IMG/VR virus record: IMGVR_UViG_2585427793_000007
Location: 1 to 5,297 of that record
From: a virus
Taxonomy: Duplodnaviria; Heunggongvirae; Uroviricota; Caudoviricetes
Reading direction: 5' to 3' (one strand)
DNA length: 5,297 nt
This document shows, in pieces, positions 1-5,297 of the stretch (position 1 is the first letter of the stretch; every line of letters begins with the position of its first letter). The position numbers were made by a program, and so were the translations under genes. The notes below the pieces were generated by a model that did no database searches, was not told the DNA's origin, and worked only from the letters and a program-made list of their open reading frames with translations.

Positions 1-969
1 CATAAAACTCTGTGAGACAGTCGTCCAGCTGTTTGTGTCGCTTTGTACGCCATTCTCTGTAATCGTTGCACCTGCATGGCTGCCATTTTTCACTTTCCAG
101 GCCAGGCAGTTATTGGGGGCATCAGCACCGCGGTAAGTGACCGAGGCCATAACAGCCACAACATCACTGTTGCTGTTATCCACCGCATCAAACGTGGCCT
201 GTGCTGCATTCAGGGACGGCGAGAGCATCAGATATCCGGCCTCGCTGTCAGAGGTGTTCAGCCCCGTGACAATATCTTTATTCAGTGAGTTTTTGGCGCT
301 TCCACCGGTAAATGCCGTTACCGGGCTGTATCTGACCTCAATGCTTCCGAGCAGGGCGGGTTCTGCACTATTATTTCTACCGTATGTCACTGTTCCACAG
401 TACATATCACCCAGCATTAACGTGCCGGATGCACCCGATGAAAAAATATTGTCACCACTACCAATACTCACCTGAATTTTGTCAGTCCGGTCATCTGATA
501 CATAAAACGATGCATTTCCAACTAATGAGCGGTTGCAGTACAGACTGGCTGAGACATAGCCGTTTTCGTTTCGCGTTGCGAAAATTTCATAGTAATAACT
601 GGCTGCTTCATCAGGATACGGGGTTGTAAATGAATAGCCATTAATCCTGATGTGGGATGGCGAAGATGAATATTTCTTTCCCGCACTTAATGTCAGACGA
701 AATCCCAGCTGTACAGCTGAGGCTTTTAAGTCCGGAAGTGTGCTGTACAGTGTGACATATGAGGGTGTCGTAAAAATCAGCCCCGTTCTTTCTACAGTAT
801 TTACGGCCTGAGTGCCACGACAGACGGATGTTACAGAACCGGACATATCATTGATAAGCGTGACACCGTTTTCGTTCAGTGCTGAAATAATATTTGTTGA
901 ATAATAGTTCTCGCACAATCCCTCATTCGCCGGAATTTGTCGGAACCCTTCCAGATTAATAATATTCAA
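1..969 (-). CDS. Hypothetical protein, partial (3' end beyond window start); possible distal tail-fibre / receptor-recognition component
   Basis: Minus-strand frame is open for 323 codons from 969 down to position 1 with no stop; a chance open frame of this length in ~45% GC DNA is very unlikely. Probable TTG start at 969..967, preceded by AAGGGG (revcomp of 976..981) with a 6-nt spacer; the first in-frame ATG (846..844) has no Shine-Dalgarno. Translation begins MNIINLEGFRQIPANEGLCENYYS and is S/T/N/G/Y-rich and non-repetitive. Not listed in the ORF track because its stop is off-window. I do not recognise the family; the fibre role is inferred from position only. Confidence 0.55.
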   Translation of the reverse strand, partial: MNIINLEGFRQIPANEGLCENYYSTNIISALNENGVTLINDMSGSVTSVCRGTQAVNTVERTGLIFTTPSYVTLYSTLPDLKASAVQLGFRLTLSAGKKYSSSPSHIRINGYSFTTPYPDEAASYYYEIFATRNENGYVSASLYCNRSLVGNASFYVSDDRTDKIQVSIGSGDNIFSSGASGTLMLGDMYCGTVTYGRNNSAEPALLGSIEVRYSPVTAFTGGSAKNSLNKDIVTGLNTSDSEAGYLMLSPSLNAAQATFDAVDNSNSDVVAVMASVTYRGADAPNNCLAWKVKNGSHAGATITENGVQSDTNSWTTVSQSFM

Positions 970-975
970 AATATT

Positions 976-981
976 CCCCTT
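976..981 (-). promoter_or_regulatory. Putative Shine-Dalgarno for the downstream ORF
   Basis: Minus strand reads TAA TAG AAACTAAAT AAGGGG AATATT TTG; the AAGGGG lies 6 nt before the TTG and 13 nt after the stf double stop, which suggests translational coupling. Confidence 0.4.
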
Positions 982-993
982 ATTTAGTTTCTA

Positions 994-2091
994 TTAAGCA
1001 GCAGATAAAACCGCAAACTGCAGTACTGCCCGATCTACTGTCAGTGGCTCATTGGTTTGATATGCTGGTACAAAGAAGGCTCTGTTAACTGCTACCGGCT
1101 CGCTCATCAGGAGTCCGGGTTGTAATTGCATGGTGTTAATGGTTATCGGTTCATGGGTGTTGCGCCCTGACTGAACAAATTTTCTGTTAATTGTTAAAGG
1201 CCCCCTTGTCTGTTCCCCGGACTGAAGCAGCACTCTGTTGATTTGCAGAGCGGGCTTTGGCGTTTCTGACGGAATTTCTGGTGGAATGACGGGCGCACCC
1301 TGAGAAGCCAGAGCCTCCGCGATTAACGCGCGTACAAATGCAGCATTGGCTATCTCATTACCGGATGCATCCGGTGGAGGTACTGGAGACATCGGGGTTC
1401 CCGTAAATTCAGGGCTGTCCAGCGATGCTTTTTTCTGCGTTTCATCCATCACTAACTTTACCGCCTTCGAGGTCGCTGCAAGCGTTTCTGACTCACTGTC
1501 CGTGGCGCTGCTCAGCCGCACAATCCCGTTGTGTTCCGTACTCGCATCCTCTGCAGTATATTTCCTGTCAGCGAGATCATATGCTGCTTTTACCGCCTTC
1601 GGGGTCGCTGCAAAATCTTCACTGCCGCTGTCCGTATCGCTGCTCAACTGCACCAACCCCTTTTGGGTTGTGGTGGCATCCATTGTTCTTATGCTGTCGA
1701 AAATCTTCTTTACACTTTCTGCATATTCGGCTGCCGCTTCCGCATTCGCCCTGGCGTGAGACACCAGTTCCTCAAGGTGGATTATCACTTCAGGCCTGGC
1801 ATTCTGCTCAGTGAATTTCAGTAAAAAATCATTCAGCGCCCCAGGCTGAGAATCTTCGTAAACGGTGATGTCCCCTATATTCGATGGTGGATAACCATCA
1901 ACCAACAGGGTGACGCTGTACTGTCCATACTCAACGTCCATACTGTAACGCCCGGTTTCATCCGATCTGACTGAAGCTACAGTACTTGCCAGCACCGTGG
2001 TGCTGTGACGCCTTGCCGTCAGCTGAATGATGCCATTCTGTATTGGTTTACCTGCACCGTCTTTCAGCACACCTGAAATCTTTACTGCCAT
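994..2091 (-). CDS. stf: Side tail fibre protein, Stf-like, short form of about 365 aa
   Basis: ATG at 2091..2089 preceded by GGGGAG (revcomp of 2097..2102) with a 5-nt spacer; the track's GTG start at 2097 is two codons upstream. N-terminus MAVKISGVLKDGAGKPIQNGIIQL...GRYSMDVEYGQYSVTLLVDGYPPS...ITVYEDSQPG closely matches the lambda Stf N-terminal domain as I remember it. Two copies of the phage tail-fibre repeat motif follow (GLVQLSSDTDSGSEDFAATPKAVKAAYD and GIVRLSSATDSESETLAATSKAVKLVMDETQKKASLDSP). Ends in a double stop, TAA at 996..994 then TAG. Confidence 0.8.
   Translation of the reverse strand: MAVKISGVLKDGAGKPIQNGIIQLTARRHSTTVLASTVASVRSDETGRYSMDVEYGQYSVTLLVDGYPPSNIGDITVYEDSQPGALNDFLLKFTEQNARPEVIIHLEELVSHARANAEAAAEYAESVKKIFDSIRTMDATTTQKGLVQLSSDTDSGSEDFAATPKAVKAAYDLADRKYTAEDASTEHNGIVRLSSATDSESETLAATSKAVKLVMDETQKKASLDSPEFTGTPMSPVPPPDASGNEIANAAFVRALIAEALASQGAPVIPPEIPSETPKPALQINRVLLQSGEQTRGPLTINRKFVQSGRNTHEPITINTMQLQPGLLMSEPVAVNRAFFVPAYQTNEPLTVDRAVLQFAVLSAA
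997..1248 (-). repeat. Five tandem in-frame 51-bp (17-codon) repeats forming the Stf C-terminus
   Basis: Translated units: LQINRVLLQSGEQTRGP / LTINRKFVQSGRNTHEP / ITINTMQLQPGLLMSEP / VAVNRAFFVPAYQTNEP / LTVDRAVLQFAVLSAA (last unit 16 aa). Conserved positions are hydrophobic-T-(I/V)-(N/D)-R, a central Q, a G/P/A turn, and a terminal E-P. DNA-level identity between units is only moderate, so this is an old protein-level periodicity, not a recent duplication. Confidence 0.7.
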
Positions 2092-2096
2092 ATTCA

Positions 2097-2102
2097 CTCC
2101 CC
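2097..2102 (-). promoter_or_regulatory. Putative Shine-Dalgarno for stf
   Basis: Minus strand reads GGGGAG TGAAT ATG, spacer 5 nt. Confidence 0.45.
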
Positions 2103-2133
2103 AAACAAAAAAGGCACCATTTCTGGTGCCCTT
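2103..2133 (-). terminator. Candidate rho-independent terminator between J and stf
   Basis: Minus strand reads AAGGGCACCA GAAA TGGTGCCTT TTTTGTTT: a 7-bp perfect GC-rich stem (GGCACCA/TGGTGCC), extendable to 9 bp with one G-U pair, a GAAA tetraloop, then a T-rich run. It sits 17 nt after the J stop and directly before the stf ribosome-binding site. Confidence 0.55.
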
Positions 2134-2149
2134 ATCCAGGTTATAAAAT

Positions 2150-4222
2150 TCAACTGATACTGATACCTGCTGTTGATTTCTTCATCACCACAACCAGTAA
2201 ATCGCTGATACTTGCTGTGGGATACCAGCCATTTACCAGCCAGGCTGACACAGAAAATTCCAGCCTCATGTGACCGTGACCGGCAGGCATATCAATAACG
2301 CCACTGTAAATCAGCGTATTATCCAGCGCAGTACGGTTATAAATTTCAGCACCGTTTTTCCGCACTATCAGACGGCATGAGGAGTAAATATCAGTATGAT
2401 TTCGCTCATGCTTAGCGCCGCTGAATGCCACCGCCGGAATAACAATCTGTCGGTCAAACGGCTGATCGTCATAAATCCTGACGGTAATGGTCCCTGATGG
2501 CCACCGTTCCGGTGCACGGGAGTCCCGGGGGAAAGCTTTACCCACTGTTTTAACGAGATCGCCTTCAATCTGGTTCGCGGACAGTTTTCCCAGAACCCGG
2601 CAGTTCTTGTTAATCGTGACGTTGTTGAGCGTCCCGGCGTTCGCATTCACGTTACCGCTGATATCCGCATTTCTCGCCGTCAGTCGCCCGTCCGGTGTCA
2701 GGGAAAATGCCGGAGGATTGCCACCACTGGTAATGGTGGGGGCCGTCAGGCGTTTCAGGAACACGTCATTCATGAATATCTGATCACCCTGCGCCACAAA
2801 CATCGGCGTTTCATTTCCGTTTGCCGGGTCAATAAACGCGATACGGTTAGCGGCAACCAGGAACTGGCTCAGTTTACCTTCCTCCGTGTCCTCCATGCTG
2901 AGGCCAATACCCGCGACATAATGTTTGCCGTCTTTGGTCTGCTCAATTTTGACGCCCCACATGGCATTCCATTTATCGTTGGCATCTTTCCACTCTTTCG
3001 AAAACTCCTCCAGTTTGCTGGCGTTATCCTCCGTCAACTCGACTTTTCCCAGCAGCTCTTTACCGAGATGGGATTCGGTTATCTGGCCTTTGAAAAAATC
3101 CAGGTAACCTTCGGCATCATCGCTCGCCCGACCGACAGCCTCCACAAATGCCGATTTGCCAACGGTGTTCACACTGCGGATGTAAAAATAATAATCATGG
3201 CCCGGCCTGATATTGATACTGGCAGCTATCCAGTACAGCGCCGTGCCAAGATAGCGCGCTGTGGTTTCAACCTGTCTGATATCCGCAATCCGCTTTTCCG
3301 AGAACCAGAATTCAAACTGTACCGTCGGGTCATAAACGGCAAGATGCGGCGTGGCGGTTATCTGAAAATAGCCCGGCGTCAGCTCAATCCGCGACGGCGC
3401 TGCCGGTGCGGCAATCCGGAACGATACCGATGCAGGATCGCCCTGCTGCCCCCAGGCATTTGCCGCCCGGACTGTCAGCCTGTAGCTTCCCAGCGCCAGC
3501 TGCCTGAAGCGGTATGTGGTTTCCGTCGTCCGGGCCGTGCTGACCAGCCGCTCACTGCCGTCATCCGCTGCCACGGTCAGGCGAAGCATAAAGCTCACGC
3601 CCTTCACCACCTTCGGTGTGTCCCATCGCGCCAGCACCTGATATTCCCCGCTGTCTGCAGTGACTTCTGCGGTCAGGTGCTGCACCGCTGGCGGCGTGAC
3701 ACCATTCACCGTGCCACTCTGTTCGCCGTCAAAGTGCGCCCCGTTATCCACGATGGCCTCTTTTTCCGGCACATGCTGCACGGCGGTGATGGCATACGTG
3801 CCGTCGTCGTTCTCACGGATACTCACGCAGCGGAACAGTCGCTGGCGCAGCGTCGGCAGCTTCAGCCCCCATACGCTGTATTCAGCAACACCGTCAGGAA
3901 CACGGCTCACTTTTACCTTCACGTCGTCGGTGACGGACTGAACCTCCACGCTGACCGGATTGCCACTTCCGTCAACCAGGCTTATCAGCGTGGTACCGGA
4001 GGATGGCAGCGTGATTTCACGGTCGAGCGTCAGCGTCCGGGTCTGGCTGTTCACCGCCAGCACACGACCACCGGTGCTGATACCGGCATAGTCATCATCA
4101 CAGATTTCAATAACATCGCCCGGTACATGGCGAAGCCCTTCTGCGCCGACGCTGAAATCCACGGTCTGCGTTTCCAGCAGTTCTGTTTTAATCAGCCACA
4201 GCCCGGCGCGGTGTGCCTGCCC
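2150..4222 (-). pseudogene. J: Tail-tip host-specificity protein J, C-terminal ~690 codons; 5' part separated by IS186 insertion
   Basis: Continuous 691-codon frame ending at TGA 2152..2150. Translation is typical of lambda J-family central tail fibre proteins, with fibronectin-III-like segments and a C-terminal receptor-binding region ending ...[24 protein letters not shown].... J-family proteins are about 1100 aa or more, so roughly 400 N-terminal codons are missing. The track's ATG at 4225..4223 is the revcomp of the CAT that begins the IS186 terminus, and the frame hits a stop inside IS sequence 18 codons further up (TAA, revcomp of 4280..4282), so it is not a native start. Confidence 0.8.
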
Positions 4223-4245
4223 CATAAGCGCTAACTTAAGGGTTG
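4223..4245. repeat. IS186 terminal inverted repeat (one end)
   Basis: CATAAGCGCTAACTTAAGGGTTG at the boundary where the J frame breaks. The partner repeat is off-window, so the assignment rests on memory of the IS186 terminus rather than an observed pair. Confidence 0.5.
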
Positions 4246-4393
4246 AACCATCTGAAGAATGCGACGCCTCGGTGCCTCGTTAAGACGATGCCTCGCGTTC
4301 TTCAATTGCGTTTTGTAGGCTGTCAGGGATACTGTCCCACGAATGGCCACCTGTAAGCTCCAGATGACCATTTTTGTTATTCTCCACAACGAG

Positions 4394-5297
4394 TTAGTTC
4401 TTCTTTTCGGATCCGGCACTTCTGGGGGGGAAATCCAGCGATGGCTGGATTATGTCGTCAATTAAAAATGCGGCGAGTAGATTAGCAAATATCCACGCTT
4501 TCGCGAGTTCAGGTTCCTTTGCACGCAAAGCATCCAGGTGCAGCAAACTTTTGAGCCGCTTAAAAGCCAGTTCAATTTGCCATCGCAGACGGTAACAATC
4601 AGCCACTTGCTCTGCTGAATATTCATCTTCCGGTAATGATGTTAGCAATAGCACATGGCCCGCTGCTTCCAGCGTTTCCGCCTGAACTACTCGTCCTTTT
4701 CGACGATTCTCGCTGAGCAGTCGGGTTTTACTGATTAATGCTTTTTCGGGAGGAAGTGATACGGCAATGAGACGTGCCGGAAAGGGAGCTCCGGCTTTTT
4801 TATTACCTGAATTGCCTATCATTACAGTGGTTTCACCGTTCTTACCGCAATCCAGCCCGCGCAGAAAACCCATCATGTCAAAGCGCATTCCTTCTGCAGT
4901 TAACCAGCGCAATCCTCGCCAGTGAACCCGGACGATATAATCAGCTTCTCCAAAAGCAAGTGAGCGGATACATTCGGGACGCGAACCGAATCCCCGGTCA
5001 GCAATGCGTATCTCGTCTGCCGTTTGCGCAAATCGGTCCAGCCGTTCAGCGTCTCTGCTGTCGGTTAGCTCAAAATCAGTGAACTGACAGGTATGAGGAT
5101 CATATCCCATATGTAGTCGCCATTCAGCGCTGCCGCCCCCGGGCGCACTGATTGCTGTTCCATCGACAAGACGCAATCTCTTTCCGCTTGTACAACCCGT
5201 AACTGCGGCGCGTACAGCAAGTGTTTGTGCGGCAAGTATGCCAAACCAGTCGGCGGCATTCCGCAGCCGCTTCAGGAGAGCCACGTCAGATAATGTT
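4394..5297 (-). CDS. insL: IS186 transposase InsL (IS4 family, DDE), partial; 5' end beyond window end
   Basis: Frame is open from the window edge (…TLSD-VALLKRLRNAADWFGILAAQTLAVRAAVTG…) to TAA at 4396..4394. The C-terminal region CYRLRWQIELAFKRLK resembles the conserved Y-R-E-K-type C-terminal signature of IS4-family DDE transposases. The track's Met at 5284 is an internal GTG; the real start is upstream of the window. Confidence 0.85.
   Translation of the reverse strand, partial: TLSDVALLKRLRNAADWFGILAAQTLAVRAAVTGCTSGKRLRLVDGTAISAPGGGSAEWRLHMGYDPHTCQFTDFELTDSRDAERLDRFAQTADEIRIADRGFGSRPECIRSLAFGEADYIVRVHWRGLRWLTAEGMRFDMMGFLRGLDCGKNGETTVMIGNSGNKKAGAPFPARLIAVSLPPEKALISKTRLLSENRRKGRVVQAETLEAAGHVLLLTSLPEDEYSAEQVADCYRLRWQIELAFKRLKSLLHLDALRAKEPELAKAWIFANLLAAFLIDDIIQPSLDFPPRSAGSEKKN

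Follow-up and report, generated by a model that had tools for sequence, protein, structure and literature searches.

The supposed side tail fibre (Stf-like) protein encoded in the window, by which we mean the whole 5,297-nt stretch analysed here (IMG/VR virus record IMGVR_UViG_2585427793_000007, positions 1 to 5,297), closes with a tandem array of five 17-residue units. Sequence comparisons across prophages suggest that this array is probably a portable C-terminal docking module which attaches a separately encoded, lectin-like protein of PHROG 8291 to phage tails. The same motif array closes four unrelated kinds of tail anchor, namely Stf N-terminal domain (Stf-N) fibres, tail-collar fibres, a collagen-like fibre and Mu gp48/YmfQ wedge proteins. 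All tail genes of interest in the window lie on the minus strand, and the features are as follows.

4223..2150, minus strand, lambda-type tip attachment protein J, C-terminal 691 residues (NCBIfam lambda_TipJ, profile positions 442-1163)
994..2097, minus strand, Stf-like anchor coding sequence, 367 aa from a GTG start, with stop codon TAA at 994-996 (open reading frame list)
1705..2091, minus strand, prophage tail fibre N-terminal domain for tail attachment, residues 3-131 (Pfam PF08400 phage_tail_N, E = 1.3e-52)
1441..1665, minus strand, two Phage_fiber_2 repeats, approximately residues 145-176 and 189-219 (Pfam PF03406, E = 3.8e-33)
1312..1416, minus strand, conserved junction motif SPEFTGTP...FVRALIAEA, residues 228-262, common to the tail-collar anchor (alignment)
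1252..1311, minus strand, proline-rich linker, residues 263-282 (DNA 93% in common with the tail-collar locus from about 1266)
997..1251, minus strand, five 17-aa units, residues 283-367 (periodicity statistics, unit profile, homologous arrays)
1201-1251, 1150-1200, 1099-1149, 1048-1098 and 997-1047, minus strand, array units 1 to 5 in that order, 17 aa each
970..993, minus strand, 24-nt spacer with a Shine-Dalgarno sequence (AAGGGG), from the array stop codon to the downstream TTG
1..969, minus strand, PHROG 8291 gene, first 323 codons (349 aa in full), from a TTG start at 969 and running off the left window edge

The Stf-like gene begins about 50 nt after J. PGAP places its start two codons later (at 2091), yielding the 365-aa protein WP_077759375.1, and DNA 99.7% identical to it in E. 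coli strain 100248 (locus L001) is annotated as encoding a "prophage tail fiber N-terminal domain-containing protein". A preliminary description of this DNA had assigned the protein a conserved Stf N-terminal domain followed by two fibre repeats, and Pfam confirmed both. The match to PF08400 reached 177.8 bits, passing the gathering cut-off of 26.6, and that to PF03406 reached 113.2 bits (cut-off 22) over two stretches that lie upstream of the 17-aa units and are distinct from them. The region of the junction motif matches several tail-fibre PHROGs. Beyond the linker the protein stops in the array and has no distal receptor-binding domain, again as first described.

The five units read ALQINRVLLQSGEQTRG, PLTINRKFVQSGRNTHE, PITINTMQLQPGLLMSE, PVAVNRAFFVPAYQTNE and PLTVDRAVLQFAVLSAA. 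Units 1-4 are of an internal type, consisting of a core and a polar spacer, and unit 5 is of a terminal type that ends in LQFAVLSAA. The array had a sum-of-pairs BLOSUM62 score of 215; shuffling its 85 residues 20,000 times gave −142 ± 25 (z = 14.3) and never a score as high as 215. When periods from 10 to 25 were scored, 17 was the only one with a positive per-position score. Five tandem 17-aa units at this C-terminus had been reported in the preliminary description and are confirmed; its range of 997-1248 does contain the array but is one codon short of unit 1, whose true end is 1251. Across the array only the Stf reading frame is open. Pairwise, the units share 4-8 of 17 residues in protein and 15-29 of 51 nt (29-57%) in DNA, and the window array is an old, diverged protein repeat, not a DNA tandem repeat. 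Tandem Repeats Finder was silent over the array because the units have diverged at the DNA level. With this empty result and such low unit identities, a role for the window copy at the level of DNA, as a tandem DNA repeat or recombination site, was rejected.

Over residues 283-367, searches of Pfam (E up to 0.1), NCBIfam and PDB sequences (E up to 10) gave no match, in keeping with the earlier view that the array is not a named domain. An exhaustive HMMER search of 1.84 billion representative proteins returned five true array relatives, none of them named, and so few carriers imply that the module is rare. Three other HMMER matches (P0035-P0037) were rejected as spurious, being repeat-rich unrelated proteins; P0036 has a 17-aa repeat of its own (EEPLPLDSA...) and no phage context shown. 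Translated searches (tblastn) of GenBank phages with the array and with PHROG 8291 both gave no match, and the module of array plus PHROG 8291 is known from prophages only. A word-indexed homology search found nothing with the 100-aa C-terminus and three fragments only with a profile of ten arrays, outcomes that reflect a limit of the index and are not evidence of absence. A scan of species-representative genomes added one locus only, in E. albertii. We found no description of the 17-aa repeat or of PHROG 8291 in the literature.

Arrays with the same motif were found on proteins with very different N-terminal parts. Stf-N fibres carry it in the window and in loci L001, L006, L010, L013 and L024; among these are a lambdoid Stf encoded after lom with four near-identical units, a 202-aa protein with three units, and a Raoultella protein with five units of 17 or 19 aa. 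About ten genomes represent the P2-type tail-collar fibres (L002, L005); the only DNA they have in common with the window, at 93% identity, begins 15 nt ahead of unit 1 and runs on through the PHROG 8291 gene. Their array closes a 285-aa protein with a P2-type tail-collar fibre domain (PF12571) at its N-terminus, the gene lies in a myovirus-type baseplate cluster, and the arrangement recurs in E. albertii. A collagen-like fibre (L011) has an array of two units at its end. The fourth kind of anchor is the Mu gp48/YmfQ wedge protein (L003, L004, L012, L014). In about 40 E. coli genomes the PHROG 8291 gene is all that is common with the window; it is 98-99% identical, the match starts exactly at the TTG, and the gene upstream encodes a gp48/YmfQ protein with a seven-unit array that is about 33% identical to the window array. 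Other gp48-like proteins have arrays of four or five units, and a 259-aa gp48 protein has three units behind an acidic linker. The most divergent locus (L008) has about two degenerate units on a separate 64-aa ORF.

The preliminary description raised the possibility that the repeats dock the downstream protein, and comparative genomics supports this, as the array and PHROG 8291 co-occur in every locus examined and with all four anchors. A PHROG 8291 gene, with a product of about 350 aa, is present at every locus with readable downstream DNA. The spacers between array and partner measure 1, 12, 17, 21, 22, 23, 24 or 32 nt, and the 24-nt spacer of the window is identical in L001, L002 and L005. 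The one exception to adjacency is a plasmid locus with a fibre-chaperone cassette between the array gene and PHROG 8291. In the reverse direction, an array-bearing gene lies upstream of all the PHROG 8291 homologues sampled, whose identity goes down to 42%. IMG/VR was scanned with a degenerate-DNA pattern for two consecutive units, which was specific in the window (0 matches expected). The scan returned 35 stretches, of which 26 are true arrays, and every one of these lies in a prophage identified in an isolate genome. PHROG 8291 follows within about 10-30 nt in 23 of the 23 arrays with downstream DNA; the other three end at the sequence edge. YmfQ N-terminal domains at 91% identity also occur free of the array, the listed example being STEC308, which is not among the 60 PHROG 8291 matches listed of 66. 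Since two arrays only about 33% identical each go with essentially one PHROG 8291 protein (98-99% identical), with the breakpoint at the TTG, recognition, if any, would rest on the conserved core and the terminal motif and not on the variable positions.

Two other links between the neighbouring genes were considered and rejected. The N-terminus of PHROG 8291 (MNIINLEGFRQ) is not an extra unit, since its position-specific score comes between 15th and 313th when about 340 windows from these proteins are ranked. Stop-codon read-through fusing the array to its partner is at odds with a spacer frame that is not constant, and the window has an in-frame TAG after the TAA. Adjacency and co-inheritance could also reflect a functional link other than docking.

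PHROG 8291 has no Pfam or NCBIfam match and is annotated as of unknown function. Its AlphaFold model (pLDDT 88, pTM 0.86, from 20 homologues) is mostly beta-strand, with about 20 strands and two short helices arranged in two beta-sandwich domains. The model has a concanavalin-A-like lectin/glucanase fold, with a predicted jelly-roll that can be superposed on lectins, carbohydrate-binding modules (CBMs), and PL7 or GH16 enzymes. Foldseek comparison with the PDB returned legume lectins and toxin receptor-binding domains. Among predicted viral structures, the full-length model resembles proteins of 306-371 aa (TM 0.55-0.67), including a "virion structural protein" of Achromobacter phage AchV4 and proteins of Serratia, Providencia and Cronobacter phages. 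At the level of the fold, PHROG 8291 is likely a virion-borne head that binds, and possibly cleaves, carbohydrate.

The position of the gene also suits a different role, in which PHROG 8291 would be a non-virion chaperone, like Tfa or T4 gp38, that folds the array-bearing fibre. Chaperone genes are typically next after the tail-fibre gene, gene order and tight spacing would fit, and the array alone is predicted to be unfolded. We consider this very unlikely, however, in view of the protein itself. At about 350 aa, with two beta-sandwich domains similar to lectins and CBMs, it is unlike the Caudo_TAP chaperones (PF02413, approximately 170-200 aa), to which its 349-aa sequence gives no Pfam match, and Caudo_TAP is found separately in the same loci, a genuine gene of this family lying farther downstream in L001. 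The full-length structural relatives include a virion structural protein, and there is no distal domain beyond the array that would need a chaperone.

Alignment of 48 distinct units gave the internal consensus P1-L2-x-I/V4-N5-R6-x-Q8-L9-Q10-S11-G12-x-x-T15-x-E17. Most information resides at positions 1, 2, 4, 5, 9, 10 and 12; the residues at 13-17 make up a polar spacer. In the terminal unit of nearly every array, hydrophobic F-A-V takes the place of Q-S-G and the protein ends a few residues later. A terminal-type unit also occurs internally, at position 2, in the seven-unit gp48 arrays, which look like two arrays joined. Units are mostly 17 aa long and 19-20 aa in some arrays, with lengths of 17, 19 and 20 even within single arrays. 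A survey of homologues had been proposed to see whether repeat number varies between prophages; it does, from 2 to 7 units across loci. In L010, L004, L018 and L048 adjacent units are identical at 51 of 51 nt, and closely related arrays can be set apart by the gain or loss of entire units (4 versus 5). Copy number is thus evolving at present, in whole 51-nt units. Between the two closest copies, the array has a dN/dS of 0.59 (17 substitutions), indicating mild constraint, and the partner gene a dN/dS of 0.19.

The window prophage itself is damaged. The 5' part of J is replaced from window position 4224 by an IS4-family element, and with J cut in this way the array copy of the window may never be assembled into particles. 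PGAP, moreover, labels gp48-array genes as pseudogenes "missing C-terminus". Both observations would suit a recombination scar, in which the repeat tail of a truncated Stf is a fortuitously translated remnant without function. Such an origin is extremely improbable, and is already contradicted by a motif that has been conserved in protein where the DNA of the arrays can no longer be aligned, on all four kinds of anchor and in both Escherichia and Raoultella. The array always ends its ORF just before the partner gene, and in-frame duplication of units is still under way. The entire window arrangement occurs at 99-100% identity in eight complete E. coli genomes, and seven genomes besides that of the window, for example strain 100248, combine it with an intact J. 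The mild constraint on the array, the plasmid chaperone cassette, the degenerate array of L008, the IS-cut J and the AlphaFold monomer run described below were counted against docking.

We hypothesize that the anchor, here the Stf N-terminal domain with its two fibre repeats, would provide attachment to the virion and that the tandem array would offer one or more binding sites for the separately translated PHROG 8291 protein encoded 24 nt downstream, whose ConA-like fold would make it the likely carbohydrate-recognising head. The contact elements may be the 12-residue core P-L-x-I/V-N-R-x-Q-L-Q-S-G and the hydrophobic terminal L-x-F-A-V, with the polar spacers of 5-8 residues as presumed loops. 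The array would become ordered only when assembled, either as an oligomer or bound to its partner, and the complete complex of anchor, array and PHROG 8291 would serve to bind host-surface glycans. Such a docking function could be realised by a shaft with a terminal socket or by several equivalent sockets.

An AlphaFold monomer of residues 221-367 showed no fold over the array, with pLDDT of about 40 from a five-sequence alignment. This is compatible with an array that folds on binding or as an obligate trimer, and weakly speaks against a self-sufficient monomeric solenoid. A trimer is what the fibrous shaft of the preliminary description would require. Three chains would then intertwine in a triple beta-spiral or beta-helix with one rung per unit; the array would mainly set the length, and only the last hydrophobic unit would hold the partner. 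A constant 17-aa period in which hydrophobic residues, Asn, Gly and Pro keep their places (P1, L2, I/V4, N5, L9, Q10, G12) is what such a fold would produce. Trimer-forming fibres (Stf-N, tail collar, collagen triple helix) account for most anchors, nearly all arrays end in a distinct hydrophobic unit, and an obligate trimer would give low pLDDT as a monomer. We nevertheless regard the shaft as unlikely, in part because the array's carriers would not all be homotrimers. T6SS TssG and T4 gp7 are present as one copy per wedge, in a (TssF)2-TssG1 arrangement, and not as homotrimers; Mu Mup48 and T4 gp7 have been proposed as counterparts of TssG (PMC6300606). By analogy, the gp48/YmfQ carriers of the array would also be single-copy, and the array ends these Phage_Mu_Gp48 proteins too, in many cases after a long acidic linker. 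Units of 17, 19 and 20 residues occur within single arrays, arrays of two or three units would be too short for a useful shaft, and no solved fibre matched in sequence or fold.

The variable spacers, the wedge carriers and the unfolded monomer would suit a rigid trimeric shaft no better than tandem docking motifs. In the fullest version of docking, which we hold to be speculative and about as improbable as the shaft, each 17-aa unit would be an independent docking site. The array would then display a multivalent brush of lectin-like copies or trimers, its valency tuned by gain and loss of 51-nt units, and would act as a transferable tag for trimeric fibres and single-copy wedges alike.

That receptor-binding proteins can be encoded separately and held by adaptors is a known principle in the evolution of phage host range. 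What docking by the array would add is an undescribed and very short tandem motif as the adaptor, grafted onto at least four unrelated fibre and wedge tail proteins. If docking is true, PHROG 8291, now annotated as unknown function, would gain a function, and the pseudogene calls made by PGAP on gp48-array genes would be corrected. The array would also provide a compact natural tag of 34-120 aa for mounting lectin-type heads on engineered lambda-, P2- or Mu-type tails or on tailocins. Of 5,426 complete E. coli genomes, 63 contain PHROG 8291 DNA, which hardly occurs outside Escherichia; this rarity limits the biological reach of the module.

Several known systems resemble parts of this arrangement. 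T-even phages of the T2/T6/S16 type have a gp37 fibre without a head of its own, and the adhesin encoded by the next gene, gp38, docks on its C-terminus. A headless fibre end followed by a head encoded separately in the next gene is the feature in common with the window. There is no relationship in sequence or fold, however, and the array is a 17-aa repeat of variable copy number with a ConA-like partner, found on wedge proteins as well. In TP901-1 (lactococcal), BppU likewise is a single anchor that carries separately encoded receptor-binding proteins. It differs in that BppL docks on a folded C-terminal domain instead of short repeated motifs, and it shows no homology.

BppU has been described as the functional equivalent of the (TssF)2-TssG adaptor, in which TssG holds two TssK trimers via two extended loops with three hydrophobic residues each (PMC6300606). 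TssG offers a precedent for a once-per-wedge adaptor in which extended segments with few hydrophobic residues hold receptor-binding-type proteins, and at several loci the array is a C-terminal extension of a protein of the Mup48 family. The loops of TssG are two internal ones of its C-terminal domain, whereas the array is a terminal tandem repeat, and TssK is unrelated to PHROG 8291. In none of gp37-gp38, TssG-TssK and BppU-BppL, functionally the closest systems, does a terminal tandem 17-aa motif occur, nor is any of them homologous to the module.

The triple beta-spirals of adenovirus fibre and reovirus sigma1 also consist of repeats of approximately 15-17 aa with fixed hydrophobic residues and Gly/Pro turns. 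In the array the conserved positions come in another order, with Asn-Arg invariably following the first hydrophobic pair and Gly the second. The array also occurs on a protein that would be single-copy, and it matched no solved structure. The window anchor can further be compared with lambda Stf and the phage_tail_N family. Nothing sets its N-terminal 131 residues or its two fibre repeats apart from other members of their families, and the gene lies directly after J as in lambdoid prophages. In Stf of the lambda type, however, a long distal fibre dependent on Tfa follows, whereas the window protein stops after the array, and what appears to be its distal part is a separate gene.

The most divergent PHROG 8291 locus (L008) encodes an Stf-N protein of 257 aa with a different, non-repeat C-terminus, and about two degenerate units are found on a separate ORF, which may be either what is left of an array in decay or a mini-adaptor that stands on its own. 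In the collagen-like fibre locus (L011), the anchor joins an Stf-N-like domain to a coiled-coil-like segment and a stretch of collagen G-P-Q triplets some 90 residues long, followed by a small globular domain and then two units.

L008:3794-3988, separate 64-aa ORF, 12 nt upstream of the PHROG 8291 homologue
L011:2240-3478, composite anchor gene (Stf-N-like, coiled-coil-like, collagen, globular, two units)

Elsewhere in the L011 cluster, one gene encodes a head-tail adaptor of the SU10 type, and J-type tip domains are found on a different protein.

Array-bearing gp48/YmfQ wedge-protein genes are labeled "missing C-terminus" by PGAP, although they contain unbroken reading frames of 319 and about 320 aa; the call is probably an annotation artefact arising from the unmodelled repeat extension.

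L003:4019-4978, gp48/YmfQ gene called pseudogene
L014:1605-2561, gp48/YmfQ gene called pseudogene

Outside the arrays, one segment of PHROG 8291 was the top internal match to the terminal-unit profile P-L-x-V-N-R-x-G-L-x-F-A-V in eight of 20 homologues. Because scores were low (-3.4 to 5.4 bits), this likeness may be due to chance. In most loci the PHROG 8291 gene has a TTG start with a good Shine-Dalgarno sequence ahead of it, and only three loci use ATG; such a conserved weak start could fix the partner-to-anchor ratio.

Window about 766-804, minus strand, PHROG 8291 residues 56-68, VNTVERTGLIFTT
Window 967-969, TTG start codon of PHROG 8291, also in L001-L006, L010 and L011

A hit in the representative protein library, P0036 (849 aa, about 20 tandem 17-aa "EEPLPLDSASHVPNxVC" units), is an unrelated protein with a weak score against the array (E = 1e-4), and was judged a convergent low-complexity similarity.

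Downstream of PHROG 8291, window-type and gp48-type loci encode a tail fibre of 369 aa ("MHRIDTPTA...", phrog_6859) together with a Tfa chaperone; beyond these lie Tfa/DUF4376 gene fragments in a pattern typical of a decayed invertible cassette.

L001:8312-9966 and L003:6082-7736, 369-aa fibre, Tfa chaperone, gene fragments

This fibre, absent from the lambdoid Stf-N locus (L010), may attach to PHROG 8291, or may be a remnant of recombination between a lambdoid and a Mu/e14-like prophage.

The J gene of the window is interrupted at 4224, where similarity to the intact J of the E. coli strain 100248 locus (L001) ends.

Window 4224-5297, non-J sequence beginning with CATAAGCGCTAACTTAAGGGTTG
Window 5284..4394, minus strand, IS4-family DDE transposase ORF

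We take CATAAGCGCTAACTTAAGGGTTG to resemble the IS186 terminal repeat. With its J gene cut in this way, the prophage is probably tail-defective.
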